Shown piece by piece: positions 1 to 38,604 of a stretch of DNA of 64,000 nt. Under the pieces are notes generated by a model. It had not been told where the DNA came from and did not search any database. It worked only from the letters and a program-made list of their open reading frames with translations. The DNA lies in IMG/VR virus record IMGVR_UViG_3300017917_002762, positions 61,947-125,946 of that record; one strand, written 5' to 3'. The position numbers and the translations under genes were made by a program. Position 1 is the stretch's first letter, and every line of letters begins with the position of its first letter. Source of the DNA: a virus.

Positions 1-2651
1 TAATTTTTAGGAATTACTAATCCATGTTTGGCTGTAAATTCAGTATTACCATTTCTAATACTTACACCATTTTTACCAATGGTTAAATCTACCCCACCTT
101 CTTTATGTGTGGGATAACCTTTTAAATCTTTTACAAGTTTCCATTTACCACCTTTAGTAAAGTTAGTTTGTAAACCTTTTTCAGCTTTTAATTTACCTCC
201 ACCACAATCTTTTTCTATTTTATTTTCTTGTTCAAGTTGATTTAAAACACTAATATACAAATTATTATCCATTTCTCCAACTTTACTATCAGGAAATATA
301 GTATCAAGATAAGAGCTATAAAGTTGTTGAGCTTGTTGTTTATTTTTTAACTGTATTTCAAAATAAGTACCTTTATCAACAGCATAACTTTTATCTAATA
401 AAGATTTCCAAACTCTATTTGCAGCCTCATTAATATCTGCTTTACCAAAAGCTTCTGATTTTAGTGTCTTACCTTCTTTAGCTAATTGTTCTGCTAAAGC
501 TATATAAACTTTTGTACCAAATCCTTTACCTTGAAATTCTTTTTCTAATTCTACTCCAGCCATCCCTATAGAAGATGATATATAGCCTTCGTTATCTACA
601 GAAATAATTCCTGCATATTTACCATCTATTTTAATAGGATAAGATATTGCTTCTGGATTATCTGGATTAAATCTTGGTTTATCTAGTTGTATTTCAGAAG
701 TATTAATTAACCCTAAAGCTTCATATACAGAATTAGCAAGGTCTTGATTAGATTCAAATAACTCTTCTACTCCTGGTTTTATTTCTTCTGTAGCTTTATT
801 TTTTTTAGACTGTTGAATTTGAAAGTAAACAAGCCTGTCATTAAAATCAGGAGGAAGAATAGATTTATCATCGTAATAGTCCCACATTTGATAATCAAAT
901 GCATCTTTTGCCCTACCCATCATGTTAAGCTTTTCGTAAAAAGCATAATTAAAATGAGCTAAAGAAAGACCAAATTCAGAATCTTCTATTCTTTTATATT
1001 GTTCTGAAGACTCTGGACGTAAAAAGAAATCAAACAGATAAATTTGTTTTAGTTCTTCTTTAGTGAAATTCTCTAAACGCTGATTGAAAGAACCTGTATA
1101 TGACTTAAATCTATTTTTTAATTCTTGATTTTCACTCCAAATAGCATTGATTGTAATGTAGAAAGCATTTGCTTTTTCATTATAGAAGGAATATAGAAAG
1201 TCAGTTTGAGGAAACTCTTTTTTAAACTCTTGTAAAACTTCTACATTATCAATTATTTCATCAATGTTTAATCTAATATTTCCTTTTAATTTATATTTTT
1301 TAGCCTCTTGATAATTTCCTTCTGAAACGTACTTGTAATATAATCTACTACTCTCTAGTTCTTCAGGAGATAAATAATTTGCTTTATTAAGATTAATTTT
1401 GTGCACATCAGATGGTACAATATTATCAATATCATGAAGAGCATCTATCTCTGGTCTATAAGTTGTTCCTTGAAGTCTATAAGCTAATGATCCAGTAATG
1501 AGCATTCCTTTTTTAGAGAACCATTGCATAAACTTTAGTGCTTTTCCACCATCTATTTTGTTTTGATTTTTTATAGTTTCAGAATAAGATAGTAAGTTGT
1601 AATTGGATGTATCTTTCTTTATCCTATCTAACTTATCATAATTCTTATTTAATATATCTTTTGCAATAGAATCAACTGTAGTGTTCAAAGAAACATTATC
1701 AATTCCTTTAATAAGATTTAGAATATAGTCTATTACTTTTTGAACCTTTGCCCAAAATTCTGTATCACCTTTTTGAACTTTATAATTTCTAACAAGAGCA
1801 ATACCAATAGCTTGTCCAATAGCTTCTTTTTTAATTTTATAAATGTCCATATTACCTTCTTTGGTAACATATACATTTTTGTAATCTCTTAGCACACGCT
1901 GATATCCATCCCATTTATCAATGTTATCAAACATGTATTTGAATAATGGGTTGTCTGCTTTTTTATTGCTTATACTTCCCAAGAGCTCTACAAACACATG
2001 TCCATATTCTTCAGGAAGAGTTAGAAGACTTCTATTTTTAGAATAGTAGATTGTTTTAGCAAGAACATCAAACACCCCAACAGAATCTACACCAAACTTT
2101 TCTTTTAAGTTATCAAGTTCTTCTCTTCTTATTTTAAATCTATCAAAATAATTTATAAGAATATTTTCTAGTTCGTTGGATAGAGGTTCATCAATAGCTT
2201 TGTAGTATTGTCTGTCTGAATCTTTTACAAACTCTTTTAAATAAGAAGATAGCACTTCAGAAACTTTTAACTGTCTTAATGAAGGGTTTTCTTTTACTAA
2301 CTGAATAAATTGTTTTCTAATATCTGGATCAAGGCCTGCTTTCTTTAGAACATCATCTATGTTTTTTTCAGAGCCCATAGAATTGATTGTTTTATTAACA
2401 GGTTTTAGCTTTGCCTCAATCTCATTAGCTGAATTGAATATGTTTTTAATTTGAAACAAATAGTTGTTTGTAAAATCTATTTGAGCTTTTTTAGCATCTT
2501 TTTCTTGAACACCTGGTTTAATTTGTGGAGTATATTCACTTTCAGGAACATTACCTTTATACTTATCCCATAAGTAATAAGACATATCTTCTCCTCTAGA
2601 AGCTACTAATGATTTCCAAGAATCTAAATTTATATTAGGACATGTTGCCAT
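1..2651 (-). CDS. Multidomain (polyvalent-type) putative virion cargo protein, about 883 aa: zincin-like EExxH segment, pol-beta-type nucleotidyltransferase, GNAT acetyltransferase, C-terminal HxxGG module. The stop falls at or just beyond the window edge.
   Basis: Not in the ORF track; translated by hand. ATG at 2651-2649 lies 2 nt after the stop of the 5123-aa gene (MATCPNINLDSWKSLV...). Motifs in one frame: TLPEEYGHVF (~1992-2021), LITGSLAYRLQG...LHDIDNIV (~1416-1502), GRAKDAFDY (~895-921), EFQGKGFGTKVY (~504-539), YPTHKEGGVDL...KHGLVIPKN (3-116). The next codon begins TA, compatible with a stop. Confidence 0.85.
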   Translation of the reverse strand, partial: MATCPNINLDSWKSLVASRGEDMSYYLWDKYKGNVPESEYTPQIKPGVQEKDAKKAQIDFTNNYLFQIKNIFNSANEIEAKLKPVNKTINSMGSEKNIDDVLKKAGLDPDIRKQFIQLVKENPSLRQLKVSEVLSSYLKEFVKDSDRQYYKAIDEPLSNELENILINYFDRFKIRREELDNLKEKFGVDSVGVFDVLAKTIYYSKNRSLLTLPEEYGHVFVELLGSISNKKADNPLFKYMFDNIDKWDGYQRVLRDYKNVYVTKEGNMDIYKIKKEAIGQAIGIALVRNYKVQKGDTEFWAKVQKVIDYILNLIKGIDNVSLNTTVDSIAKDILNKNYDKLDRIKKDTSNYNLLSYSETIKNQNKIDGGKALKFMQWFSKKGMLITGSLAYRLQGTTYRPEIDALHDIDNIVPSDVHKINLNKANYLSPEELESSRLYYKYVSEGNYQEAKKYKLKGNIRLNIDEIIDNVEVLQEFKKEFPQTDFLYSFYNEKANAFYITINAIWSENQELKNRFKSYTGSFNQRLENFTKEELKQIYLFDFFLRPESSEQYKRIEDSEFGLSLAHFNYAFYEKLNMMGRAKDAFDYQMWDYYDDKSILPPDFNDRLVYFQIQQSKKNKATEEIKPGVEELFESNQDLANSVYEALGLINTSEIQLDKPRFNPDNPEAISYPIKIDGKYAGIISVDNEGYISSSIGMAGVELEKEFQGKGFGTKVYIALAEQLAKEGKTLKSEAFGKADINEAANRVWKSLLDKSYAVDKGTYFEIQLKNKQQAQQLYSSYLDTIFPDSKVGEMDNNLYISVLNQLEQENKIEKDCGGGKLKAEKGLQTNFTKGGKWKLVKDLKGYPTHKEGGVDLTIGKNGVSIRNGNTEFTAKHGLVIPKN

Positions 2652-21388: not shown

Positions 21389-23533
21389 TTAATCATCTTC
21401 AAAGTTAATATTGTTATTATTATTTTTATTTTTTAAATATCTAGATGTATAAATTTTACCATATATTTGAGCTAATGTATCATCTGTTGCTCTTGGAAAC
21501 GATTTTCTTAATGTTTCTGGATCTATATTAGAATTAGCAGTAGCACGTTTTTTAAGATAATTATCTCTAGCTTGTGGAGATTTAAAGGTTATCCTACCAT
21601 TTCTAGGATCTATAAAATAATCTTCAGATGTTGTTCTATTTATATTATATAATGAAGATGCATTTTCATGACCTTGTGCAAATGATTGTAATAAAGCAAG
21701 TCTAGCTTGTCTCACTGCATTTTGATATTGTTGTTCACCAATTACACCAGCATCATATAATCTTTTAGCTCTTTCTGTATCAAATTGCATTTGTTGATTA
21801 GCAATTTGAGCTTGTTGTTGAGAAGCTTGATTTGCTAAAGGAACATTCATTCCTGCATATTTGTTCATTATTTGTGAAACATTTTTAGCAGTGTTACCAG
21901 ATAAATTTAAATATCTAGCTTGTGGTCCAGATAACATATTATATGCTTGTTGTGTAGCATACGCGTTGGCAGCATTTTCTGATAACTCTTGAGTAGGATC
22001 ATAATAAGTTACTTCAGGACTTTTTAGTTTTGCAACTGGTTCCCAAGGAGTAGCTTTTTTTATAGATGCTAAATTATAAGCAGAATTTAATAATCCTAAT
22101 TTATCAGGAGTAGTCCATCCATAAGGAATTTCATCAACATTATTATCAGAATCATTATCAGAATCATTATTTAATGATTTAACTTTTAATGCTGCATTTT
22201 GAGCATTTGAAATTAAATTAGCTGTAGGATTACTTAATTCAACAGGTAAATTTCTTATACCAATTGATGGTATAGTTTTTAATTTATTAGCATTATAATC
22301 ATAATAATGTAAATCATTAGTTCCAGGTTTTTCTTTAAAATATTTATTATGAAAATTAATAACCTCTGGATTATTTACATCAGATAAATATTTAGCTTTT
22401 GCTAAATCTTGTAAAGTATATCCTTGAGGAGCATATTTTTTAACAGACATTTTCCAAGAATTAGGATCATAGTTTTTACTTTTTTGAGCAGTTGTTAACT
22501 CAATTAATTCAGAAGGTTCTCCATCTTTATCATAATATACATAACCATCGTCATCAGTTTCTTTTTTAAAGTTATTAAGTAATCCTGATGTAGCTAATGA
22601 AATAGGAATAGGTTGATATTTTATATTATTTTTTAACTTATAATTTATACCTTCTTGAGCTTTTAATAAACCGCCTCCATATTTAAAACCCATACCATCC
22701 ATAGCAACAGGCATTTCTTCTTGCATTTCATCACCTTGTTCTTGAATATTATTAATTTTATTATAATATTCTTTTGCTATTTCAGGAATGCCTTGAGGAA
22801 ATCCTTTTTTACCTTCTTGTGCTATTGCTAATTGCGATAATTTTGTATTATAATTATCAATCATTAGTTGAGCAGTTCTTTTCATTATAGCATCAGCTCT
22901 AGGATTATTTAATATAGTTTGATATTTATTAATATCATATTGCTTTGCTAATTGTGCAGGTGTATATTTTTTATCTGTTTTATCAGATTTACCAAAAACT
23001 TTTAATACATCACCACCTAATCTCATTTTAGGAGTATCAGAAAAAACAAAACTTCCTTCAGGTACATTTAAAGGAGTTCCTCCTTGAGAATGTTTTTTAC
23101 CACCAATTTTAAAATGATATTTGCCACCTTTATAAGGAGTAATAATAGTTTCACCTTTTTCTGCTTCAATATTAGCTTCTTCTCTTGGTACTTCTTTTAT
23201 ATGATCATTTAAAGTTTTTTCTTCATCTTGATTCATATATAATCTACGAGAACCTAAATCTAAAGCATGACCCATTTGACCACCATATTCAGCAGTTTCT
23301 ATTTCTTCTTCTGATTGCATATTTTCTTGCTGATTAGATACAGCAACATACATTTGTTGTAATGCTTGTTGTTGTTCATTAGGTTGCATTTTTTGAAGTT
23401 GCAACAAAATAGTTTTAGGATCAACACCAGTTTTTTGAGCATATGCTTTTACAACTTCAATAATTTGTTGTTGATTTTGCTCACCACCATTTTGGTATTC
23501 AGGTTGTTTTATTATTCTTACTTTATATTTCAT
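21389..23533 (-). CDS. Putative virion cargo protein (714 aa) with an AEKGE...HSQGG module and a Q/A-rich helical C-terminus
   Basis: EANIEAEKGETII...GGKKHSQGGTPLNVPEGSFVFSD is the E.E.gE/H..GG module typical of crAss-like cargo proteins; cargo-block position. Confidence 0.6.
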   Translation of the reverse strand: MKYKVRIIKQPEYQNGGEQNQQQIIEVVKAYAQKTGVDPKTILLQLQKMQPNEQQQALQQMYVAVSNQQENMQSEEEIETAEYGGQMGHALDLGSRRLYMNQDEEKTLNDHIKEVPREEANIEAEKGETIITPYKGGKYHFKIGGKKHSQGGTPLNVPEGSFVFSDTPKMRLGGDVLKVFGKSDKTDKKYTPAQLAKQYDINKYQTILNNPRADAIMKRTAQLMIDNYNTKLSQLAIAQEGKKGFPQGIPEIAKEYYNKINNIQEQGDEMQEEMPVAMDGMGFKYGGGLLKAQEGINYKLKNNIKYQPIPISLATSGLLNNFKKETDDDGYVYYDKDGEPSELIELTTAQKSKNYDPNSWKMSVKKYAPQGYTLQDLAKAKYLSDVNNPEVINFHNKYFKEKPGTNDLHYYDYNANKLKTIPSIGIRNLPVELSNPTANLISNAQNAALKVKSLNNDSDNDSDNNVDEIPYGWTTPDKLGLLNSAYNLASIKKATPWEPVAKLKSPEVTYYDPTQELSENAANAYATQQAYNMLSGPQARYLNLSGNTAKNVSQIMNKYAGMNVPLANQASQQQAQIANQQMQFDTERAKRLYDAGVIGEQQYQNAVRQARLALLQSFAQGHENASSLYNINRTTSEDYFIDPRNGRITFKSPQARDNYLKKRATANSNIDPETLRKSFPRATDDTLAQIYGKIYTSRYLKNKNNNNNINFEDD

Positions 23534-23543
23534 TGTTACAAAT

Positions 23544-25952
23544 TTAATCTAAAAATTCAAGCTGTCCACCAGCTTTTAAAAATTGTTGTATTTCATTCTC
23601 ATCCATTTCTACTACTTGTCCACCAAGTTGTTGACCTCCATATTTCATAATCTCATAATTTGTTCCTGCTAATTTATTATATGAATTTAATTTATTTTTA
23701 AAATCAACACCCCATTTTAATTTATTTCCATAATCTTTTCTAGGAATTATATTAAATACAGATTTATCTCCTTCCATTGCTCTCTTTGCAAAAGCAGGTT
23801 GATACCATGCACCTAATGCATATACACCATAATTTTTAATATGATCAGACATTAAAGATCTTGCAGCAGCATATTCAACATCAGGATTTGTATCAAATGC
23901 GGATTTAAATTCATTAAATGTTTTAAAATTAGATCTTAAATTTTTATCATTTTTAAATATCTGTTTTAGTGTATCTGTTGTAATTTGATATGTTCCAGAA
24001 GCAGTTGCTCTTTTACCACCTTTACCAATAAGTCTTGTTCTAAATCCTACTTTAGTTTGACCAGGTTTTACACCAGATTCATGTCCAGAAACAGCTTGTA
24101 ATGCAAGATCTACATCAATAGGTCCATCAATAGATCTATTTTTATTAATAGTATATGAAGGACTATTTAAAGGAACAACTGGTGGAGCTACTCTTGTATT
24201 ATCATGTAAAGCTGAAGGAAGTGAATATAAAGATTCATAATTAATTGGAACTGGAATATTTTCTTCTGGACTTTCTAATCCATAATCTGCTAATGTTTCT
24301 ATTTGTGGTTCAAATCCACCAACAGCATATTTAGGAACTTCCATTCCATATTTACCATACATACCTTTAAAAGACATATTAGAATAAGATATTTTTTTAC
24401 CTGTATTAGGATCATAATCTCCTTTACTTGCAGAAGGTGCATTTGAAAATATAGAATCTGTAGAACCTTGTGATATTAATGAATTGTTATAATCATCATT
24501 TAATCTACTTTGTTCCATAGAATTTGTAATTAAATCTCCTATACCAATAAGATTAGAATTAAAATCAGAAATACCTCTCATTGTTTTTTGAAATTTAGTT
24601 TTTCCATTATTCCATCTATCAATAAAAGAAGATTTATTATTTGTTATATCATATGGATCAGATGCATCAGATGTTTCTATTACATTACTTCTATCAGAAT
24701 AATATTGAGAATTATCTTGATTATTATTTGTATTCCAAGTGTTTACAAAACCATTATCAGGAGATATTTGAATTTCTTCACCATCATTTATTTTTGGACC
24801 GCCCCCTTTAAAATAATATCCACCAGCAGAAACATAAGTACCTGAATCAGAATTTTTATGAAACTTACCATCCATTCCATAATATCCCCCATGTTTAAAA
24901 TTTCTCATAGCAGGAAATACATTTCCTCCTTCTTCATGAAATCCGTGATGTTTTTTAAATGTTTGTGCAAGATTCCATTGAGGACTTCCTTTAGGACAAT
25001 CATAATTAGGAGATCCTGGTGTACATCTTCCTGGATGTTTAACAGCACTTTGTATCCAATTACCTCCTGTTTTATATTCTGGTATTAATGGACCACCATA
25101 TTTTCTCATTAAATTATTATAATTTGTATTTGCTATTTCAGGAGCAGGAGTTCTATTTATTCTAAAAGGATTATTAGTACTAGAAACTGATCTCATAGTA
25201 TTAGCTGGTGACATAGGTTGTCTATTTGCAGCACTATAATTTACAGGATTAGGTTTTGTATTTTGATATTCTGTATTTTTTTCTACTTCCCAATAAGGTT
25301 GTCCTTTTAAAACTGTTGTACCAGGACCATATGTATCTGGAATAATACCATTTCTAAAAGCACTATCTATTTCGCTTTTATTCCAATTTCCTTCAAAAAT
25401 AGGTTTATATATTTTTTGAGCAGATGTTTTACCAAAATTATCTTTATAATAATTAGGTGAATTTAATAATTCATACCTTATTTTTTTACTTGGTGCTGTA
25501 GTTTTTTGAAAATCATTAAATATAGCAGCACTTCTTGCACCTAACATATTGTCTGGTGCAAAAGATTGTACACCATTATAATTAACAAATCCTGCTTTTG
25601 CTGCACCATATTTGTTAATCATTTGTTTCATTAATTCTGGATTATTACTAGAAATATGTTTATACATATCTTCTTGAAAATTTCTAGCATTATCAGTTCT
25701 CCAACCATATTTTTTACCAGCTTCCATTAATTGTTCTGGTGTTATATTTTGAGTATTATTATAAAAAGAATTATTTTGACCTGTAGGTGTTAACTGACGA
25801 CCAGATGTATAAACTTGTATACCATTTTGTGCTTCTTGTAATTTATCACACGCTTCAGGGTAATCATTGCAAAATGATTCTTGGTCAGGATAATAATTAT
25901 AAAACTCATTTTCTGTTAAACCTGTAAGGTTTAATATTTCTTGCTTATTCAT
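23544..25952 (-). CDS. Modular putative virion protein (802 aa) with a C-terminal lysozyme/lytic-transglycosylase-like domain
   Basis: ALQAVSGHESG...ATASGTYQITTDT...AAARSLMSDHIKNYG...GAWY (~23790-24110) fits the SLT/lysozyme pattern (catalytic E in ES, A.G.yQ). Also a small NWIQSAVKHPGRC...DCPKGS module. Confidence 0.65.
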   Translation of the reverse strand: MNKQEILNLTGLTENEFYNYYPDQESFCNDYPEACDKLQEAQNGIQVYTSGRQLTPTGQNNSFYNNTQNITPEQLMEAGKKYGWRTDNARNFQEDMYKHISSNNPELMKQMINKYGAAKAGFVNYNGVQSFAPDNMLGARSAAIFNDFQKTTAPSKKIRYELLNSPNYYKDNFGKTSAQKIYKPIFEGNWNKSEIDSAFRNGIIPDTYGPGTTVLKGQPYWEVEKNTEYQNTKPNPVNYSAANRQPMSPANTMRSVSSTNNPFRINRTPAPEIANTNYNNLMRKYGGPLIPEYKTGGNWIQSAVKHPGRCTPGSPNYDCPKGSPQWNLAQTFKKHHGFHEEGGNVFPAMRNFKHGGYYGMDGKFHKNSDSGTYVSAGGYYFKGGGPKINDGEEIQISPDNGFVNTWNTNNNQDNSQYYSDRSNVIETSDASDPYDITNNKSSFIDRWNNGKTKFQKTMRGISDFNSNLIGIGDLITNSMEQSRLNDDYNNSLISQGSTDSIFSNAPSASKGDYDPNTGKKISYSNMSFKGMYGKYGMEVPKYAVGGFEPQIETLADYGLESPEENIPVPINYESLYSLPSALHDNTRVAPPVVPLNSPSYTINKNRSIDGPIDVDLALQAVSGHESGVKPGQTKVGFRTRLIGKGGKRATASGTYQITTDTLKQIFKNDKNLRSNFKTFNEFKSAFDTNPDVEYAAARSLMSDHIKNYGVYALGAWYQPAFAKRAMEGDKSVFNIIPRKDYGNKLKWGVDFKNKLNSYNKLAGTNYEIMKYGGQQLGGQVVEMDENEIQQFLKAGGQLEFLD

Positions 25953-25997
25953 AATAAACGATGTATAATATAATTTACTAAATTTTAATGATTTTAT

Positions 25998-28900
25998 CTA
26001 ATTTTTAAGAAAGTCTAACCAGTTTCTATTATCTTTTTTAACCACTGGGTTTAATGTTGATTGTCCACCTATTGCCATTATCTGTCCACCTTGTTTTTTA
26101 TAACCTTTTGATTTCATATAATTTAAAATTCTTTTATATTCTTTTTCTGATATATCTGGTTTTCTTCCTGGAGCAATCATCTGATGAGTTATAATATCTT
26201 TAACTGATAAATTATATTTTTTAGCAATTGGAGTATAGTATTCAATAAATGATTCTATTTGTTGTTGAGTTAACGGTTGTTTATTTGTATCACCTTGAAA
26301 CTCAACACCTATACTAAAATCATTTACATTATCTCTATTATTCCATTTAGATTCTCCTGCATGAAATGTTACTTGTTCTGGAGATGCATATACTGTTCTT
26401 TTACCATCTTCTTCAATAACTACATGTGATGTATTTGCATTTGGACTCATATATTGTTTTCTAACTTCTTCTTCATTAGTCAAAGGATTTGTATAAGCTG
26501 TATGATGAAGTACAACATTCTTTATTTCATTTTTAAGTTTATGTCCTTTTTTATAACTATCATCTTTAACAGTTCTTACATTAGGTGTTTGTAAATAAGT
26601 TTCAGGATATTTATTTATTGGTTGTTTATAATCATAAATATATAATCCATTACCGCCACTTGTATTTTCTAAATCATAAGCTTTAAGTCTATCTGGAGTT
26701 AATTTTTTATCTTTATAAGATAAACCTCTAGAATATGTACCATTATCAAGAGTATATGCCTCTAAATATTTATTATTACCTTTTAATCTTTTAAATTCAT
26801 TTTTTATATGTTCAACACTTCCAGAAACAAGATATTGTTCTTTTGTTGTTGGATTTACAAATAATATACGACCACCTTGTACTTGACCATAGTAATCTTT
26901 TTTATCATCTCCTTTAACTAATATATTTAATGAACCATCAATAATTTTTCCATTATCATCCAATACCTTTATTTTTGGTTGTTTATATGCAGGATTTCCT
27001 GATTTTGCTCCATCAATATATTCATTTTTACCTGAAGACTCAGCAAAATCTATAATATTATTTTTAAATGTTTTGCTAAATACATAATCTTTATTATTCT
27101 TAAAATCCTTATATTGACCTGTATGTAAATTACCATCTTTATCTAAAGCTAATACACTTGTATTATCTGGTAATTGATTTTTACTAAAAGGATTAAATGT
27201 TGTAATTTCAAGACCATCTGTATTTATGTCTTTATAATCACCTCTATTTCTAAAACCAAATTTAACATTTGAAATAGGTAATAATTGTTGTTTATAAGTT
27301 CTTCCAGAATTACCAGGTGCATTTATTGTAGTTATTTCTCCAGGATATTTTTGATTATAATATTCAAATACTGTTTTTGGTTTATCTGATTCTTTAACTT
27401 TTACATCATTGTCGCTACCTGTATGAGTAGCAAATTTACGTTTAATTCCATTTTCTGCTGTAGTATATAGATCAGAAAGATAATTAAATGAATTATCTAT
27501 TGTATTAAATATATTACTGTTAGATTGTGTAATATTTTTATTATTGATTAATGTTGAACCATGTGTAATATCTCCTTGAAATAAATTATTTTTTGCATCT
27601 GTTACTGTAATAATATAAGGATTTATTTTAAGATCATTTGATTGAATTTTATTATCTTTTTTAGTATTATTTACTGGATTATATGATAAATAATTTTCAT
27701 AAACTGTAGGTTTATATTTATAAAAAGGTGTCTGTAAAATATTTGTATTTGGAGATTTTAGATTAGTTTGTGTATTATTTAAATAGATTTGTTTTTCATT
27801 ACTTCCATAACCTGCCCAATAATTATTTTTATTTATAAATTTAAGAAGATTTTCTCTTGCTATTTTATTATCTGATATATCAGCCCATGTTTTACCATTT
27901 TTAGTTTTATAATAAGTTTTATTTCCTTCTATTATATAATCATAATGTGGACTATAGTTATCTATAATTATTTTTTTATTATCTGTTGTTGGTATCTCTT
28001 CAAATCTTAATTCTCTATCAAATTTTTCAGGAATAATTAATTTATTTCCAGATTTAATTAAATTTGGATTCTGTATATTATTAGCATTGGCTAATGTATT
28101 TAAAGGAACATTATATCTATTTGATATATTTGATAGCGTATCTCCTTTTTGAATTTGATATGTACTACCTCCTTTTTGATATTCCATACCATACATATCA
28201 TTAGCTGCACGTTTATATCCTTTTGTAGCAAAATAATCTGCTACATCCCAAGAAGGTGCTTCTATATATTCTTGTGTTTGATAAGGTTGATAAGATAGTT
28301 GTTCAGGACCTGTTTGTATAATAGTTGGATATACTATATTATCACTACTACCCATTAACAATGTTGATATGTCATTGCTATTAGGATCCTGTCCAGGAAT
28401 ATATTTTGTAGGAATACCTCCTTGATAACCAAATCCAGCAGCACGTTGCATAAAGTTTTTACCTAAATTTCTTTGTAACAAAACTTTAGAAATAGCATCC
28501 ATGCTTGGATCATTCACCATAGGCTTATTAGTTCTCCAATACACTTCTTTTCCTGTCTGTGCTGTTATAAATGGTCTTTTATTATTAGTTTTTGCAATTG
28601 TATTTAAGATATTTATGATTGTTTCGTCATCATAATAGTGTCTTAAATCTTCTAAAGGGCTATAAATAGAATCATTACTTAAAATTGACTTATCAACTTT
28701 TTGTCCAGGTTTAAGATTAAGAGTTCTTCTAATATCCATTATTCTTGGATACATTCCATCTTTATTTAAATATTTTTCTATTTTTTTCCAAACATTATCA
28801 TAAAGTTTAGGAACTCTTTTATATATTTCTTCAAAAGTTTCTTTTGTAAATTTATTTGTTTTTGGATTATAGTTAGATATTCCCATTTGTTCTACAAAAC

Positions 28901-31900
28901 GAGCTTTAGAATCTTTTTTATTAAAATATTTCCAATCAATAACATCTTCCATTGCTTTTTGTAAAGGTTGTGCTGCATGTACTCCTTCATGAGCAATTGT
29001 TCCTGGTAAATTAAAAGAATTAACTATAATTTGTTTTGTATTTGGATTATAACTTCCTAATTCAGATACTCCTGTTATATAATTATGACTATTAAAATAA
29101 GGATTTCCACCAAATGTACTTGGAGATTTCCATTCTTGTAACTCATTATTATATTCAAGATCACTTGCAGAAACATCAGCTTTTTTAACAAGTTCTCTAC
29201 TAAAAGTTGGAGTATTTTGTAAAATATTTATAGCTTGAGAAGTTAACTGACTTGGATTTGTATTTTGGTGAAAAAAACTCTCTTGTAAGTTTTGTTTTAA
29301 TCTTTTTTGTGTTTCTGAATTTTGATACCAATTTTTTAAAAATGGATCAAGATCATTATACATTTTATATGTACTTTGAACATTATCTAAATTATACCAC
29401 CAATCTAATATAGTGTTACCTCTTTTTTTACCAGTTGTACCACCACCTTGATAACTATTTTTAATCTTTCTTTCTTGTTCCAACATTTCTTTTGTTGGAG
29501 CTTTACCAGATCCTCTATTGGCTCTAATATTATCCCACAATCCTCTTCTAGAATATGATCCATCTGCACGTTTTATCATTTCACCACCATCTTCATATTC
29601 TTGAAATATCCCTTGTTGTTTTAATTTATTAATTTCTTCTGGAGTATAATAACCAATTTGAGAAGGTAATAAAGAAGTATTATAACCAATTAATCTACTA
29701 TCGGGAAATTTAGTATACACTGGTGCTCCTGATGGTTGTAATATAAAATAATTTTTTTGTGGAATAATTTTTTTATTTGTTAATTTAGGATTTATAGAAT
29801 AATTATTATATGTGGGAATTTGATTTAAGTTTTCTTTTTCTTTATATAATACTTGTTGTACTGGTTTTTTATATTCATGCACTCCATAAGTAGCTGTATT
29901 TCTATCTATCCCTGCATTTATTAAATCCTGCCTAGTTAAATTAGTAGGTCTTCTATTTTTATCTACTAAAAACTCCCCATTTGAATTTTTTTGCATAATA
30001 ATACTATACCCCCTTATAGGCTTAATTTGTTCATCCGAAATTGGAGTATAAACACCTGACAAAAGATTGTTACTTTTTATAAAATTTAAGTAATTATTTA
30101 CTTTAGGATGACTACTTGTATATAAACTCAAACTATCATCATAAGCTTGTTTTCTTTTTTTATATTCATTAATATCAGATGTAATAAAAGGTGCAACATT
30201 TCCACCACCTTGCATCATAGGATATTCATCTACATAATTAGCTCCAGGAAAATAGTAATCTTGTTCTGGGTACATCATAGTAGTCATACCATTATTAGCT
30301 TTAGCTAATACAGGATATGGTACATTTTGCATAGTTATATTTTTACCTGATATTCTAGTAATTTCTCCAGGATGTGCCCATTGTCCTCTGTTATCTTTTA
30401 TTATACCACCATGTTTATGTTGCTTAACTCCATAATGAGGAAGCATTACATGTTCTCCTTTTTGAAAAGGTCTTGATATGTCTTTTGGAATTACACCTCT
30501 TTTTACTTGCTCATCTATTTCAGAGTTTAGATATTTTGAAATATCATCTGCTCCATATCCATATTTTGATAAAAATCCCATTGGGTTCATCGGTTTATAA
30601 CCAAGAAACTGAGGATCTCCTTTAGTGTATTTAAACACTTGTTTTAACTGAGGAAGATATGAACTATGTGATGTGTTTGTACTTCCTGTAAATACATCTC
30701 CAGACTTAATACCTTCAGGAGCAAAGTTAACTTTTTTAGAAACATTTTTTAAATTACCTGATTCTGCTAAAAAAAGATCTGGAACTTTTTCAAGAACTTC
30801 TCCAGGATGATATGGATAATCTTGTATATTTTTATTTATAAAGTTTTTTAACTTATAATTAATAATTTGACTAGTTCGTCTTTTTTGATTAACATATCTA
30901 TTCCAATCATCACCTAAAGTTTGAAAAAGTGTTCTTCTAGATTCTTCTTGTCCTGGAATAAGTGTTCTTCCTCTTCTAGAACCAGTATTTATTTCTGAAC
31001 TATAATTATCTAATGTATGTCTAAGAATATCACTTCTGTTTAGAATATCACTTCTGTTTTGTGTTGGCATAGTAGACCTAGCAAAATTAATAAGTTCTTC
31101 TTCTGTCATACCAGCAAGAGCAGCAAAATTTGATATTTCTTCAGGAGAACTATTCATTATATCAATCGTTGTTTGGATTGGAGTAGAGGTTCTTCTTGGA
31201 GGTCTTTGTAAATTTATTCTATTTATTATATTATTAGATTCAGCAGTTTCTCTTCTACCAAAACCTCTATCTAATAAAGATTGAGCTTCTTCTTTAGATG
31301 CACCAAATAATTTTTGAAAATGTTCTTCTGGAAGATTATTATTTAAACCATATCTCATTTGTTCAGCATATGATGCATTAGTTGCTCTAAGTCTACCTAT
31401 TTCTTGAACTTTTCTAAAAGTTTTAACATCTTCAGGATTCATTCTTGGAATATCTTTTTTTAAAGGGATACCATTAATTCTTCCAATTGCTTCTTTAACG
31501 TTTTCAGCTCTTGGAATATCTAAAAAAGTTTTAACTACATTTTGTGTAATAGGATGTTTAATTAAATTTGGAACACCTAAAGCCATATTATTTAAAAATT
31601 CAGCATTAGAAACTTCATTGGTCCAAAACTTTTTACTAATTGGATTTATACTTCCAGATCCCATAGATCTACCCATAACTAATGGAGTGGCAATAGCTGT
31701 AAGATATGGAAGAATAGAGTTAGATTGTTGAGCTTCATAAGGAGCTTGCGCTAAATTTCCTGCTATATCTCCAACCCATTGAACAGGATTTAATGCATGA
31801 GGTAATTTATTTATTTTTCCTCTTTGTTTTAAAGCATTTCCTCTAACATAATTTTTTTCTCTCCAATTCATTTTATCAAATGTTTTTCTTTGACCATTTG

Positions 31901-32147
31901 GTAATGTATATGGAAGATTTTTTTCTATTGTTTCTATAGGATTTGAAGTAGATATAAAAAATTTATTAGGATATGCATCTCTTAATACTCTTTGATTAAA
32001 AGCATATTGTTCAGCTTCTTTTTTAAATTGTTCTTTTGTTTTATTAATAATAGGTCTTTTTACAAATGTATTATCTGATAAAACAGGAGATGTATAGTTA
32101 TATACAACTTCATTTCCTAATTGATATTGATCTAACCATTTTTTCAT
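25998..32147 (-). CDS. Modular putative virion protein (2049 aa): zincin HExxH, LysM and C-terminal N-acetylmuramoyl-L-alanine amidase (Amidase_2)
   Basis: GTIAHEGVHAAQ (~28970-29005). LysM: TYQIQKGDTLSNISNRYNVPLNTLANANNIQNPNLIKSGNKLIIP (~28030-28165). Amidase: VVLHHTA...SHVVIEEDG...FHAG...NDFSIGVEFQG...IITHQMIAPGRKPD (~26150-26530). Ends in TAG. Confidence 0.85.
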   Translation of the reverse strand: MKKWLDQYQLGNEVVYNYTSPVLSDNTFVKRPIINKTKEQFKKEAEQYAFNQRVLRDAYPNKFFISTSNPIETIEKNLPYTLPNGQRKTFDKMNWREKNYVRGNALKQRGKINKLPHALNPVQWVGDIAGNLAQAPYEAQQSNSILPYLTAIATPLVMGRSMGSGSINPISKKFWTNEVSNAEFLNNMALGVPNLIKHPITQNVVKTFLDIPRAENVKEAIGRINGIPLKKDIPRMNPEDVKTFRKVQEIGRLRATNASYAEQMRYGLNNNLPEEHFQKLFGASKEEAQSLLDRGFGRRETAESNNIINRINLQRPPRRTSTPIQTTIDIMNSSPEEISNFAALAGMTEEELINFARSTMPTQNRSDILNRSDILRHTLDNYSSEINTGSRRGRTLIPGQEESRRTLFQTLGDDWNRYVNQKRRTSQIINYKLKNFINKNIQDYPYHPGEVLEKVPDLFLAESGNLKNVSKKVNFAPEGIKSGDVFTGSTNTSHSSYLPQLKQVFKYTKGDPQFLGYKPMNPMGFLSKYGYGADDISKYLNSEIDEQVKRGVIPKDISRPFQKGEHVMLPHYGVKQHKHGGIIKDNRGQWAHPGEITRISGKNITMQNVPYPVLAKANNGMTTMMYPEQDYYFPGANYVDEYPMMQGGGNVAPFITSDINEYKKRKQAYDDSLSLYTSSHPKVNNYLNFIKSNNLLSGVYTPISDEQIKPIRGYSIIMQKNSNGEFLVDKNRRPTNLTRQDLINAGIDRNTATYGVHEYKKPVQQVLYKEKENLNQIPTYNNYSINPKLTNKKIIPQKNYFILQPSGAPVYTKFPDSRLIGYNTSLLPSQIGYYTPEEINKLKQQGIFQEYEDGGEMIKRADGSYSRRGLWDNIRANRGSGKAPTKEMLEQERKIKNSYQGGGTTGKKRGNTILDWWYNLDNVQSTYKMYNDLDPFLKNWYQNSETQKRLKQNLQESFFHQNTNPSQLTSQAINILQNTPTFSRELVKKADVSASDLEYNNELQEWKSPSTFGGNPYFNSHNYITGVSELGSYNPNTKQIIVNSFNLPGTIAHEGVHAAQPLQKAMEDVIDWKYFNKKDSKARFVEQMGISNYNPKTNKFTKETFEEIYKRVPKLYDNVWKKIEKYLNKDGMYPRIMDIRRTLNLKPGQKVDKSILSNDSIYSPLEDLRHYYDDETIINILNTIAKTNNKRPFITAQTGKEVYWRTNKPMVNDPSMDAISKVLLQRNLGKNFMQRAAGFGYQGGIPTKYIPGQDPNSNDISTLLMGSSDNIVYPTIIQTGPEQLSYQPYQTQEYIEAPSWDVADYFATKGYKRAANDMYGMEYQKGGSTYQIQKGDTLSNISNRYNVPLNTLANANNIQNPNLIKSGNKLIIPEKFDRELRFEEIPTTDNKKIIIDNYSPHYDYIIEGNKTYYKTKNGKTWADISDNKIARENLLKFINKNNYWAGYGSNEKQIYLNNTQTNLKSPNTNILQTPFYKYKPTVYENYLSYNPVNNTKKDNKIQSNDLKINPYIITVTDAKNNLFQGDITHGSTLINNKNITQSNSNIFNTIDNSFNYLSDLYTTAENGIKRKFATHTGSDNDVKVKESDKPKTVFEYYNQKYPGEITTINAPGNSGRTYKQQLLPISNVKFGFRNRGDYKDINTDGLEITTFNPFSKNQLPDNTSVLALDKDGNLHTGQYKDFKNNKDYVFSKTFKNNIIDFAESSGKNEYIDGAKSGNPAYKQPKIKVLDDNGKIIDGSLNILVKGDDKKDYYGQVQGGRILFVNPTTKEQYLVSGSVEHIKNEFKRLKGNNKYLEAYTLDNGTYSRGLSYKDKKLTPDRLKAYDLENTSGGNGLYIYDYKQPINKYPETYLQTPNVRTVKDDSYKKGHKLKNEIKNVVLHHTAYTNPLTNEEEVRKQYMSPNANTSHVVIEEDGKRTVYASPEQVTFHAGESKWNNRDNVNDFSIGVEFQGDTNKQPLTQQQIESFIEYYTPIAKKYNLSVKDIITHQMIAPGRKPDISEKEYKRILNYMKSKGYKKQGGQIMAIGGQSTLNPVVKKDNRNWLDFLKN
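31024..31059. repeat. 18-bp tandem duplication (NRSDIL x2) in the 2049-aa gene
   Basis: agaatatcacttctgttt is repeated twice, in frame. Confidence 0.9.
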
Positions 32148-38100: not shown

Positions 38101-38252
38101 ACACCAACATTACCATCATGAGAATTATTAACTAAATTTCTAGCATGAGTCCAAATACCTTCTCCAATATAAGAATCATTAGTATCTTTAATCATTCCTT
38201 TAGTAAAGGAATTTGTTTTTTGAGGTATATTATTAGTATTATTATTTTCCAT
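32154..38252 (-). CDS. Tail stabilisation/muzzle protein (crAss-like, P22 gp10-like position), about 2033 aa, with two inserted paralogous beta-sandwich modules
   Basis: N-terminal SFTKGMIKD...ARNLVN...GVIGNEPSN; later GYMRDEVYSFFIRW, GYEILRG, FSGDIYINR and WLSFHDW motifs characteristic of this protein class. ATG at 38252 is preferred over the track's TTG at 38264. Confidence 0.7.
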   Translation of the reverse strand: MENNNTNNIPQKTNSFTKGMIKDTNDSYIGEGIWTHARNLVNNSHDGNVGVIGNEPSNLHCIDLPYTLIGCISTDDDEWVLFTTNNTDSEIGLFKELNCTYTKLVNSPCLNFNTKNLITGVFRKTFDCSKKVYWSDGRRNPDRVLDINNIPWVQNCTTTNNCVTCVPTNQLDCEKLRIAPLLSVPCLSLTKGNTGTLMNGTYQVAVAYMVNEIKITDYLQISNAVSIWDHSGTAGGLNLELSNLDGDYSEIEVVVIANTNGQVYAKRLGIYSTRQSSIYIDSLNNALISIPIEYIPLQTPVIESSDKISAVNNYALRIGPSTKPEINYQPIANYIRAKWVNVKYPGNYYNKGGANVGYMRDEVYSFFIRWVYNTGDKSASYHIPCISSFTNAVNLNQTLPDGGIITKEGYTLSYTSTEKYPDDKPLIWNSSLVSNNLYNLCGQNIVHHRFPSNDVLPHFNSDDTINVLGIKFENINPPRKDPHNPLSPLIPGIVGYEILRGSREGNKSIIAKGMVNNMKSYNNDNSLFQNYPYNDSNSNDPFYNTSFSLKQDYLSFHSPDTTFNQPFLGKCDLKVYLDIMGEANGNFKEVYKHPQFRLLNNFANNLINILNLLNYASTFSGTPVFSTTLAASSDLPFSSTIAPLPPLLLNNSSPADPSITLQNIATTALWIAQAVAITAYNTAMLPVIKQKLLEIFKNLAPFRQYAVQMDSIGNYNTYKASTQQLSVNNYSYIKDGVYSFNGKLVNNLYRNKYVLLKTDSNLSTSPEKSILLGETGNTYYSNLVSKYAAIKLNLTSQYGQIDSIRQIPITSCVQETNNTTSDLLFSGDIYINRYTEKNNFTFFNDWLFQQPNDYQYDYRKYQNIPNVRYYVNNERMIVGFGNIFENVNSYRNLYNETSGSSIGFNNINFSIHVEKGSFFVSYNGIRNFYVESEVNVGYRDWVEDANNQSYIPYTSDNASLDLMFRSDNIKYPEVFKYDYSLSASKLYNQYVNWGYVLPRSFDPSKAETCYSYYPRRINYSLPQAQELKKDNWVVYLANNYKDFPAIVNTVKQINKTGAIILMENKSPLSMVGVDTMETDAGTKVTIGDGGLFNQPLQSQVNSDEIFEYGSCQNARSVVSTPQGVFYVSQDQGKVFLWGGSLNEISNSGMKWWFSRYLPSNLKKYFPNFTEHDNTVEGAGVITTYDNTNEIVYITKKDYIPLREDIQYISGVGFVIPTNITSNINKQSLLNTACLEGYVPVYNVNSTICECVKYQNTQVNLVTFNNTLRNVENNTTTNSWTKFGTLVYDNNFNDNLSTTPLLNGFGTFTNIGKINRFWINENVTYPDPNNVVKKLMREHANIKNPIYNVFLNLENEVTYYVALCSGNEITDTNRIILLVDNKEIINLGISDFINSKMNLLFPTSIYSGFDARNFYNSFLHIFPITLSAGKHTITFKALAQSGIMVLNNTLNDLINATSLDDLNPIFTTYRSDNSNISYTSYDYDATLAPNKTFVPGETYVNSSTILDTISLTPVEVTQPPIQQVNYIPIKTCDTTYFKDVSWTISYDLKNKQWLSFHDWHPTFMLPSKTHFLTSYNECGKNSSLWKHNNRWDSYCNFYNKNYPFEIEYVVSTGSEITTIKNIEYYLEAYKYNNNGQDKFHVLDYNFDSAIVYNSEQISGLLNLNIKPKNNPFVYLNYPIINPTGSTEILFSKEEQKYRLNQFYDITKDRGEFTNVKNNLIVTLDNGYVWYINPSAVDYYKSAIQHKKFRHNINKVLLRKNTPPPVESIPATPPTNYNLIPVKYISWGKFGAALAPSISYNGIINNINILSTNYWKQKINDIAVWSNSSPINTWIGFEECFTVDADKTYYIGVAADNLYRLKLDNNIILSLESTTPNSITGIIDPYEVIKNYTLQPSFSSLNPLCPTCPANSIFESSIAGPYQLFLIVPVTLTAGVHKISLEAMDLGNPGMFAAEIYNNTNSEIISATSDNSLNILFSTKGKTSFYKYDYQCPKGYNLIPQENPCNTPQCEKITEHDIKMLFKFINTKLQISNK

Positions 38253-38604
38253 TTCCAATTTCAATTTTTTTTGATTTTATAAAATCATATATTTTTTCTG
38301 TTATATACCCACATAACCAAGCTCTTGTTTCTTCATCATCAATATCTCTATCTGCTGTTATCATTGTAGCTGCATGATATATTTCATGGGCAATTGTATT
38401 ATGAGTTAAATATTTTTTATCAATTAATAAATAATAAATTAAACCATTTACAGATACAAAAATACCTTCTAATTCTATTATTTCATTATTTTTTAATTTA
38501 TGTTTTTTATATATATTAGATATATCTTGACTTATATTATCTGTTACAATAAATTTTAATTTACAACTAAATGTATTAATAGAAATTAATTTTGATAAAG
38601 ACAT
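38242..38604 (-). CDS. Small zincin-like metallopeptidase (120 aa)
   Basis: TIAHEIYHAA (HExxH) followed by DEETRAWLCGY (downstream Glu ligand pattern E..AwL.gy). Confidence 0.7.
   Translation of the reverse strand: MSLSKLISINTFSCKLKFIVTDNISQDISNIYKKHKLKNNEIIELEGIFVSVNGLIYYLLIDKKYLTHNTIAHEIYHAATMITADRDIDDEETRAWLCGYITEKIYDFIKSKKIEIGNGK

Follow-up and report, generated by a model that had tools for sequence, protein, structure and literature searches.

A di-glycine motif at the module joints of probable ejected cargo proteins in a crAss-like phage

A cargo slot between the muzzle and polymerase genes

The DNA analysed here, a stretch of 64,000 nucleotides that we call the window, covers positions 61,947 to 125,946 of the virus record IMGVR_UViG_3300017917_002762 and is the right half of a complete phage genome of 125,946 bp with direct terminal repeats. 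The genome has a G+C content of ~26%, and its minus strand holds all large genes. On that strand, a portal gene and an open reading frame (ORF) for a muzzle-like virion protein are followed by three ORFs, C (25998-32147), B (23544-25952) and A (21389-23533), and then by ORFs of 1084 and 5123 amino acids (aa). The subject of this work is a short motif in A, B and C, [YFHM]-x-x-G-G, written Phi-x-x-G-G, in which Phi is Met, Phe, Tyr or His.

PHROG matches identify the portal and several further virion structural proteins, and the muzzle-like ORF, which borders the slot upstream, shows weak collinear BLASTP similarity to gp44 of the crassvirus PhicrAss001. The gene order agrees with gp44-gp50 of that phage and puts C, B and A between the positions of the muzzle and virion RNA-polymerase genes. 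By this synteny, the three ORFs are the cargo-protein slot of a complete crAss-like phage. Their position, together with the cell-wall enzyme modules that they encode, makes it probable that the proteins of this uncultured phage are carried in the particle and injected. Crass-like phages are the only deposited phages with any similarity to the window, and tblastn of A, B and a small ORF with an HExxH string (38242-38604) against 50,697 deposited phage records gave no match.

A motif confined to the cargo proteins and placed at their joints

A, B and C together contain 19 matches to the motif, while 2.4 are expected from shuffled sequences. Two pairs of matches overlap, leaving 17 distinct sites. 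Each ORF contributes (observed/expected 5/0.35 in A, 7/0.91 in B and 7/1.16 in C), whereas the remaining 26 ORFs of the window together hold 8 matches against ~6.5 expected, and the muzzle-like ORF shows no enrichment. The whole genome has 33 matches, and 19 of them belong to A, B and C. A preliminary description of this DNA had reported di-glycine motifs at module boundaries of the three cargo ORFs and proposed a comparison of cargo with non-cargo proteins; all of its quoted examples were found in place, and by that comparison the motif is above background in the cargo proteins. Shuffling within blocks of 40 residues, a control for local low complexity, gave P <= 0.0005 for each of the three proteins. 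The control for register is the most informative. Met, Phe, Tyr or His stands exactly at -3 in 57% of the Gly-Gly dipeptides of A, B and C against a background of 13%, and at other offsets in 4-25%. In related loci, the figure for -3 is only 4% in the non-cargo ORFs that lie downstream of the A homologue.

The same pattern is 6-8 fold above expectation in 238 homologues. There His, Met, Phe and Tyr are enriched 3-8 fold at -3, but Leu, Ile, Val and Trp are not, and position -2 is mostly Lys, Ala, Gln or Glu. The glycine codons of the motif are ordinary, with the same GGT/GGA mix as elsewhere, indicating that selection acts on the peptide and not on a DNA site; these ordinary codons and the variable codons around them rule out a DNA-level recombination site.

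Of the distinct sites in A, B and C, 14 of 17 are joints, lying in predicted flexible segments or at domain edges. The suggestion in the preliminary description to map motifs against AlphaFold domain boundaries therefore held for these fourteen but not for three sites in A. FKIGG, HSQGG and MRLGG (A 141-145, 148-152 and 170-174) are invariant glycines inside a confidently predicted beta domain, and in the model they are structural glycines rather than joints. With family alignments, AlphaFold2 places A sites 13-17, 81-85 and 283-287 in low-confidence segments. In B, the helical N-domain is confident, residues 204-607 fall below 50 in the predicted local distance difference test (pLDDT), and every joint lies within 204-607 or at the edge of the fold at 608-770. 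That fold has a weak likeness to soluble lytic transglycosylases; the best hit for whole B in Foldseek/VIA-align had E 0.42. Foldseek and VIA-align with the whole A model returned only generic helical hairpins (best Z 7.4). In alignments of A and B, the joint glycines show little or no variation even among homologues with as little as ~32% identity; in the 46-sequence alignment of A, G84, G85 and Q86 are invariant, and G286 and G287 nearly so. Homologue coverage along B rises from ~30 to ~100 subjects exactly at YKTGG and drops at HEEGG, FKHGG and FKGGG.

Several individual placements claimed earlier stand as described. YQKGG ends 3 residues ahead of the Pfam LysM domain, YQGGG lies directly before the conserved HExxH module of C, YEDGG precedes EMIKRADGS, and YKTGG precedes NWIQSAVK. 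Others are right in part. KKQGG (C 2017-2021) does follow the amidase, 19 residues past Amidase_2, but has no M/F/Y/H at -3. YAVGG precedes the lysozyme-like module of B but is ~60 residues away and not directly at the fold edge. The AQxG variants are weak by their window counts (4 against ~0.7), although they flank the HExxH module in homologues; in C this module begins right after YQGGG and ends at TAQTG (SAQNG in homologues).

Comparison with relatives shows what the joints separate. In 80 related loci, motif-rich ORFs hold 1056 motifs against 168 expected. These ORFs were picked by motif counts, and the test is their position: in the ten loci listed they lie between the muzzle-like ORF and a ~1030-aa ORF, and flanking genes are without enrichment. 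When 241 proteins were compared all against all by BLAST, the starts of internal alignments peaked at Phi and the alignment ends at the second Gly. Homologues of A and B are mosaics, with whole cassettes gained, lost, duplicated and moved between neighbouring ORFs exactly at motifs. The cassette A 18-85, for example, is inserted right after the YQNGG of the leader; in locus L016 the A homologue does not have it, and a separate ORF upstream starts with this same module. Two relatives, P0046 and P0033, are nearly pure strings of 30-80-residue mini-modules with the motif abutting both sides, and homologues carry SLT, YkuD, DUF5754, DUF5872 and DUF2958 in varied order. The earlier proposals of a string-of-beads gene architecture with the motif marking module boundaries, and of modules swapped at the motif, are thus borne out by the mosaic homologues, the boundary-aligned BLAST ends and the cassette insertions, deletions and moves.

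The motif is dropped on the side where a module forms the end of a protein (L036, L028, L011), and a Tlr6F-like module in a cyanophage portal fusion is without it. It therefore belongs to the joint and not to the modules, and these two observations rule out that it is part of the modules. Tandem copies occur, and some small ORFs have a copy among their first 7 residues. Taken together, our results indicate that Phi-x-x-G-G is a joint signal at the level of the protein and is specific to the cargo proteins that crAss-like phages eject. The cargo protein is a chain of cassettes, each consisting of a small module, taken as independently folding, and the motif in a predicted flexible segment.

The ends of the chains are conserved as well. 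Cargo ORFs of the clade begin with leaders of the types MKxYKVRIK..P..[MY]xxGG, MKKWLDKYxxGG or MNKQ.IL..TGL...FY..YPD and end with tails of the types ...VTPEQL..L...GY.FEII, ...QFL.AGGQLEFLD or GGWLDNY; leaders and tails are each attached through the motif. One tail of ~25 residues, acidic and then V/L-T-P-E-Q-L..L...G-Y/G-x-F/L-E-I/F-I/L, ends one cargo ORF in most of the loci L002-L081, and looks like an address or oligomerisation peptide. WLD.Y adjoins the motif at both ends, as MKKWLDKY..GG at the N-terminus (C, 32093-32147, minus strand) and as ..GGWLDNY at the C-terminus (L051, L052, L059, L061, L064), a recurrence that hints at head-to-tail pairing of cargo chains or at a shared docking site. 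Two homologues of the HExxH module of C (P0250, P0252) start with a zinc-ribbon-like CxC...CxxC peptide (MKGKV.CTCGWSWNKSD...YICHECG), a recurrent end cassette, followed by MKNGGWLDNY.

Some beads have relatives elsewhere. DUF5754 (Tlr6F) and DUF5872 occur as beads in the crAss-like cargo proteins P0046, P0033 and P0254-P0262, while both families are otherwise known from giant viruses and polinton-like viruses, as small proteins that stand alone. In Aphanizomenon phage vB_AphaS-CL131, the protein annotated as portal (L084:1902-6083) has a Tlr6F-like module fused into it, which suggests that Tlr6F is a head-internal protein. In the window, the 883-aa ORF after the giant polymerase gene (3-2651, minus strand) had been listed earlier as ending in similar motifs. 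It does carry TKGG and HKEGG near its C-terminus, but its enrichment is borderline (2 against 0.34 expected, P = 0.044). Pfam gives GNAT alone (E 1e-4), and sequence and profile searches of the PDB gave nothing clear for this ORF.

Table 1. Features of the cargo slot and its neighbours (window positions; residue numbers refer to the ORF named)
Feature	Position	Strand	Remarks
Portal	59667-62405	-	phrog_6547, E 9e-86
120-aa HExxH ORF	38242..38604	-	candidate minimal zincin; overlaps start of muzzle-like gene by 23 bases
Muzzle-like virion protein, 2036 aa	32154..38264	-	phrog_37948 + phrog_15100
Cargo ORF C, 2049 aa	25998..32147	-	polyvalent chain: HExxH module, LysM, Amidase_2
Joint HKHGG, C 577-581	30405..30419	-	
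IIKDNRGQWAHPGEIT cassette, C 582-643	30219..30404	-	motif on either side; conserved in homologues
Joint MMQGGG, C 644-649	30201..30218	-	
Joint YEDGG, C 851-855	29583..29597	-	
43-aa mini-module KRADGSYS..GLWDNIRA, C 856-898	29454..29582	-	motif on both sides; common to many mosaic proteins
Joint YQGGG, C 899-903	29439..29453	-	
HExxH module, C 904-1200	28548..29438	-	H1053, E1054, H1057 invariant in 10 homologues
Joint YQKGG, C 1323-1327	28167..28181	-	3 residues before LysM
LysM, C 1330-1373	28029..28160	-	Pfam
Amidase_2, C 1873-1998	26154..26531	-	N-acetylmuramoyl-L-alanine amidase domain
Joint MAIGG, C 2024-2028	26064..26078	-	KKQGG ahead; then C-terminal tail ending NWLDFLKN
Cargo ORF B, 802 aa	23544..25952	-	conserved helical N-domain, ~400 aa motif-punctuated low-confidence region, lysozyme/lytic-transglycosylase-like fold, conserved C-terminal tail
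Joint YKTGG, B 293-297	25062..25076	-	start of widely shared WIQSAVKHPGRCTPG mini-module
Mini-module, B 298-338	24939..25061	-	60-90% identity across ~100 otherwise different proteins
Joint HEEGG, B 339-343	24924..24938	-	end of B 298-338 mini-module
Joint FKHGG, B 352-356	24885..24899	-	G355, G356 nearly invariant
Joint YFKGGG, B 380-385	24798..24815	-	closes 28-aa cassette (YYGMDGKFH...)
Joint YAVGG, B 542-546	24315..24329	-	low-confidence segment, ~60 aa before lysozyme-like fold
Confident helical fold, B 608-770	23643..24131	-	pLDDT 83-93; GHES motif
Joint MKYGG, B 769-773	23634..23648	-	between lysozyme-like fold and C-terminal tail
Conserved C-terminal tail, B 774-802 (...VVEMDENEIQQFLKAGGQLEFLD)	23547..23633	-	terminates one cargo ORF in the majority of related loci
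Cargo ORF A, 714 aa	21389..23533	-	N-terminal leader, 68-aa cassette, beta domain, flexible region, long helical C-terminal part
Conserved basic leader, A 1-12 (MKYKVRIIKQP type)	23498..23533	-	runs into first motif
Joint YQNGG, A 13-17	23483..23497	-	predicted disordered segment, leader end
68-aa cassette, A 18-85	23279..23482	-	ends AEYGG; G84, G85 invariant
Folded beta/alpha domain, A 108-262	22748..23212	-	pLDDT 75-87; contains FKIGG, HSQGG, MRLGG
Joint FKYGG(G), A 283-287	22673..22687	-	within predicted disordered segment 263-355; G286, G287 nearly invariant

HExxH modules, proteases and known delivery systems

The block holds two HExxH strings, at residue 1053 of C and in the 120-aa ORF, each invariant in homologues. 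For the C module, neither Pfam nor PDB sequences gave a match; its weak feature likeness to the polyvalent-protein domains LPD23/LPD1 (score 0.84) is a lead only. The 120-aa ORF combines the invariant HExxH with a conserved RD..EE..AW in 7 homologues and gives an Atlas model with a predicted template modelling score (pTM) of 0.83; it has no Pfam family and no PDB sequence match. Profile searches of the PDB gave nothing clear for either module. In cargo-slot ORFs of related loci, HExxH strings number 48 against 3.1 expected, 15-fold over chance. Because they fall into several unrelated sequence types, diverse metallopeptidase-like cassettes are common cargo in the clade. Typical zincin contexts (VVAHELGHS, LVHELGHAS, QIHELTHKM) are seen in plus-strand ORFs upstream of the A homologue in loci L002-L081. 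PhicrAss001 Gp4 (L085:1145-1537), a protein of 130 aa annotated in its record with DUF4157 (eCIS_core, an HExxH domain), is encoded far from the cargo genes and could be a counterpart of the small HExxH ORF.

The preliminary description had named the 38242-38604 zincin as a candidate protease for the motif. Its HExxH is indeed invariant, but the distribution of the ORF does not follow that of the motif: 4 of the 7 contigs of relatives that were tested have it, but 3 of the 5 complete relatives that keep motif-rich cargo do not, and neither do PhicrAss001, DAC15 and Rudgehvirus. The C-type HExxH module occurs in only 1-3 of the 80 loci. Motif density per 1000 residues is the same with and without HExxH (4.5 and 4.3, p = 0.89), and the HExxH modules therefore behave like one more exchangeable effector cassette. 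No coupling of the motif to them was found in the relatives, the cultured crassviruses or the 80 loci. Elsewhere in the complete genome, Pfam gave no match for the protease families C5 (adenain, PF00770), C48 (Ulp1, PF02902) and C39 (PF03412), nor for S78, ClpP or eCIS_core. MPTase-PolyVal (PF18818) had no match at E <= 0.1, while the control matched in B. thetaiotaomicron. S77 was likewise without a match in the complete genome, but its control was also silent, and that result is hence uninformative.

A, B and C resemble the polyvalent proteins of Iyer, Burroughs, Anand, de Souza and Aravind (2017, PMC5512222), which are very large delivered proteins with unrelated enzymatic and binding domains in variable order. 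Several unrelated domains per chain are present here too (LysM, Amidase_2 and HExxH in C, a lysozyme-like fold in B), and HExxH modules are frequent in polyvalent proteins as they are in the cargo of this clade. However, the genome has no MPTase-PolyVal match, and its two HExxH modules are without family assignment. The polyvalent-protein paper describes no inter-domain joint peptide ('linker' occurs 0 times) and no crAss-like phages ('crAss' 0 times).

A second comparison, with adenovirus and African swine fever virus (ASFV), had been drawn in the preliminary description. Adenain (C5), ASFV pS273R, the SUMO/Ulp1-like proteases (C48) and bacteriocin leaders (C39) likewise involve a hydrophobic residue shortly before Gly-Gly and virion-internal protein boundaries. 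The analogy holds for Gly-Gly at module boundaries; it fails on the lack of a Pfam match to C5 or C48 in the genome and on the hydrophobic residue, which is one position further from Gly-Gly. The adenain consensus is (M/I/L)-x-G-G|x, with the hydrophobic residue at P4, and Phi would be at P5 if the window motif were cut after Gly-Gly. The Phi set is M/F/Y/H, not the M/I/L of the adenain type, with Leu, Ile and Val not enriched. Double-glycine leaders of C39/PCAT systems have hydrophobic residues at -4, -7 and -12 and occur singly at the N-terminus, while in the window Phi is at -5 and copies of the motif recur inside the chains.

T4 internal proteins carry a short cleaved N-terminal capsid-targeting peptide, and phiKZ-like phages have cleaved inner-body proteins. 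The likeness to our cargo lies in a short conserved N-terminal peptide on head-packed, injected proteins, followed by a defined short motif. The T4 and phiKZ motifs, however, end in Glu and are cut by the prohead serine protease (S77 or related), and the window motif is repeated along the whole chain.

The closest positional counterparts are the cargo proteins C1 (gp45) and C2 (gp46) of the Bacteroides phage PhicrAss001 (Bayfield et al. 2023, PMC10172136; PDB 7QOG and others), which occupy the same slot and are mostly unstructured chains with few small ordered pieces. The C1 proteins of gut crassviruses also contain the IHIK..KGKFT mini-module of this clade's relatives, and C1 homologues are enriched in the motif in DAC15 (DAC15_59, 6 against 1.2) and Rudgehvirus jaberico (gene49, 8 against 0.25). 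Enrichment in gp45 is weaker (3 against 1.2, plus several [AF][YF]GG sites); one of its motifs, FDTGGQ at residues 17-21, follows a leader of different sequence. Unlike this positional match, the window proteins have no detectable sequence or profile similarity to gp45 or gp46. The family crAss_CARG1 (PF25725) has no match in A, B, C or 46 A homologues, and comparing the A profile by hhalign with gp45 and with P0081, a partial B homologue, found nothing; P0081 itself reaches E 1e-5 against PF25725, below the curated cut-off. The window chains are also far more elaborate than C1 and C2, with up to 2049 aa and LysM, amidase, lysozyme-like and HExxH modules. The published work on PhicrAss001 cargo does not mention a joint motif or processing, and no description of the motif was found in the literature searched.

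Hinge, handle or cleavage site

We favour, at a probability of roughly 40%, the reading that Phi-x-x-G-G is an uncut joint, a hinge that doubles as a docking or loading handle. The motif would remain uncut in the virion. Gly-Gly would serve as a flexible hinge that allows the long chain to be laid along, and then threaded through, the portal and tail channel bead by bead, and the Met or aromatic residue before it would make each joint a small docking handle. A twelve-fold virion component, such as the portal or tail-barrel rings, or other cargo chains may read this handle during loading. Loading and passage would then depend on joints and end peptides rather than on modules, so that any module between joints would be tolerated, which would explain the turnover of cassettes. 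The preference at -3 for His, Met, Phe and Tyr but not Leu, Ile, Val or Trp fits a motif that is read rather than a plain spacer, and the tandem and N-terminal copies fit a handle better than a hinge alone. The lack of a Pfam match in the genome to C48, C5, C39, S78, ClpP, MPTase-PolyVal or eCIS_core, and of any coupling between HExxH modules and the motif, also counts for an uncut joint.

Data from PhicrAss001 bear on the fate of the chain. Pieces of gp45 dock twelve-fold, residues 214-245 in the tail barrel and 425-552 on the portal, and gp45 is interpreted by the authors as a single chain that spans the portal (PMC10172136). By our own mapping, the resolved pieces lie between Gly-Gly sites 209/263 and 427/562. 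The reported portal-bound piece begins A425-F426-G427-G428, and this site thus appears uncut after Gly-Gly. Gel bands of the virion at 150, 270 and >300 kDa (PMC6235969) were assigned in our re-analysis of the peptide-mass fingerprints to gp49, gp50/gp47 and gp44, which indicates that the large ejected proteins of this phage stay whole. In the fingerprints of bands 1-10 (PMC6235969, supplementary file 14), gp50/gp47, gp49, gp44, gp26, gp22, gp25 and gp23 are recognisable; gp45 was never above shuffled controls in any of these bands.

Several points weigh against the uncut joint. The ordered gp45 site, WNAFGG, is non-canonical, with Phi at -1 and not -3. The large proteins that stay whole are RNA-polymerase proteins and are not clearly enriched in the motif (none in gp49 and gp50, 4 against 1.07 in gp47). 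Low pLDDT from shallow alignments is no proof of disorder in the modelled segments. Finally, the abutment of modules on Gly-Gly, the N-terminal leader with its motif and the 15-fold excess of HExxH suit processing equally well.

Processing of a polyprotein is the nearest competitor, though we consider it somewhat unlikely. The motif would be an endoprotease site, cut after Gly-Gly, between the glycines or next to Phi, and the chain would be divided into modules either inside the capsid or once it has been ejected into the host. The agent might be a phage HExxH module (C 904-1200, 38242-38604 or their equivalents in relatives), a phage protease not yet recognised as such or one from the host. 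What is seen, a short motif with position-specific residues that sits in flexible joints directly against the modules, is what such a site would look like, and the conserved leader ending in the motif, as also at FDTGGQ in gp45, resembles the cleaved capsid-targeting peptide of T4. Gly-Gly sites serve adenovirus, ASFV and several RNA-virus papain-like proteases. For polyvalent proteins, autoprocessing by zincin domains has been proposed, and P1 DdrB is cut before packaging (PMC5512222). The HExxH excess in the cargo block and the invariance of both window modules would supply a candidate enzyme. However, the small HExxH ORF is missing from 3 of 5 complete relatives and from three cultured crassviruses that bear the motif, the C-type module is rare, and motif density is independent of HExxH. 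None of the Pfam families searched for with informative controls supplies another, Phi is one residue further from Gly-Gly than in the adenain and papain-like protease consensus, gp45 is reported continuous from 425-428 into its portal-bound domain, and no ORF ends exactly at Gly-Gly.

A passive linker kept by descent is improbable in our view. Under this explanation, a preferred linker sequence, for instance a helix stop with a hinge, is copied along with cassettes and read by nothing. The motif is joint-specific, is dropped at protein ends and lies in low-confidence segments, cassettes take their trailing motif along, and no reader protein was found, all of which would be expected of a linker. 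Against it are the strong residue specificity at -3 and -2, and glycines that stay invariant in otherwise unalignable segments between homologues of 32-50% identity. Tandem copies with nothing between them, and N-terminal copies in small ORFs where a hinge is not needed, are also difficult to reconcile with a spacer. Typical natural linkers have no conserved aromatic residue. Lastly, a chance or compositional artefact of Gly/Tyr/Asn-rich low complexity is hardly credible: although the pattern was defined after the fact and B is Gly-rich (9%), it is ruled out by the local shuffles, by an excess found at -3 alone and by reproduction in the 238 homologues, the 80 loci, DAC15 and Rudgehvirus.

A bolder extension, which we likewise hold to be improbable, is that end peptides and Phi-x-x-G-G joints form a portable loading-and-release code. 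A module flanked by it would be packed into the cargo zones of capsid and tail and delivered, whether by threading as a bead or by being cut free once ejected. If true, nothing beyond this code would be needed to get a foreign reporter protein into a crassvirus virion, and the code would explain the continued exchange of injected effectors by the most abundant gut phages.

No phages are more abundant in the human gut than crassviruses, and the motif touches the question of how ~5 MDa of protein is loaded into their particle and pushed through the tail. A 2026 paper calls for structures of crassvirus ejection proteins (PMC13434306). The five-residue joint signal is confined to ejected proteins, conserved from environmental relatives to cultured gut isolates, and marks the points of module exchange. 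Its enrichment in the C1 homologues of cultured DAC15 and Rudgehvirus makes it testable at the bench. Even if it is merely a linker, the motif would still be a useful annotation rule. The joint signal predicts where the chains bend, dock or are cut, and offers rules by which cassettes can be delimited in thousands of giant phage proteins that lack annotation.

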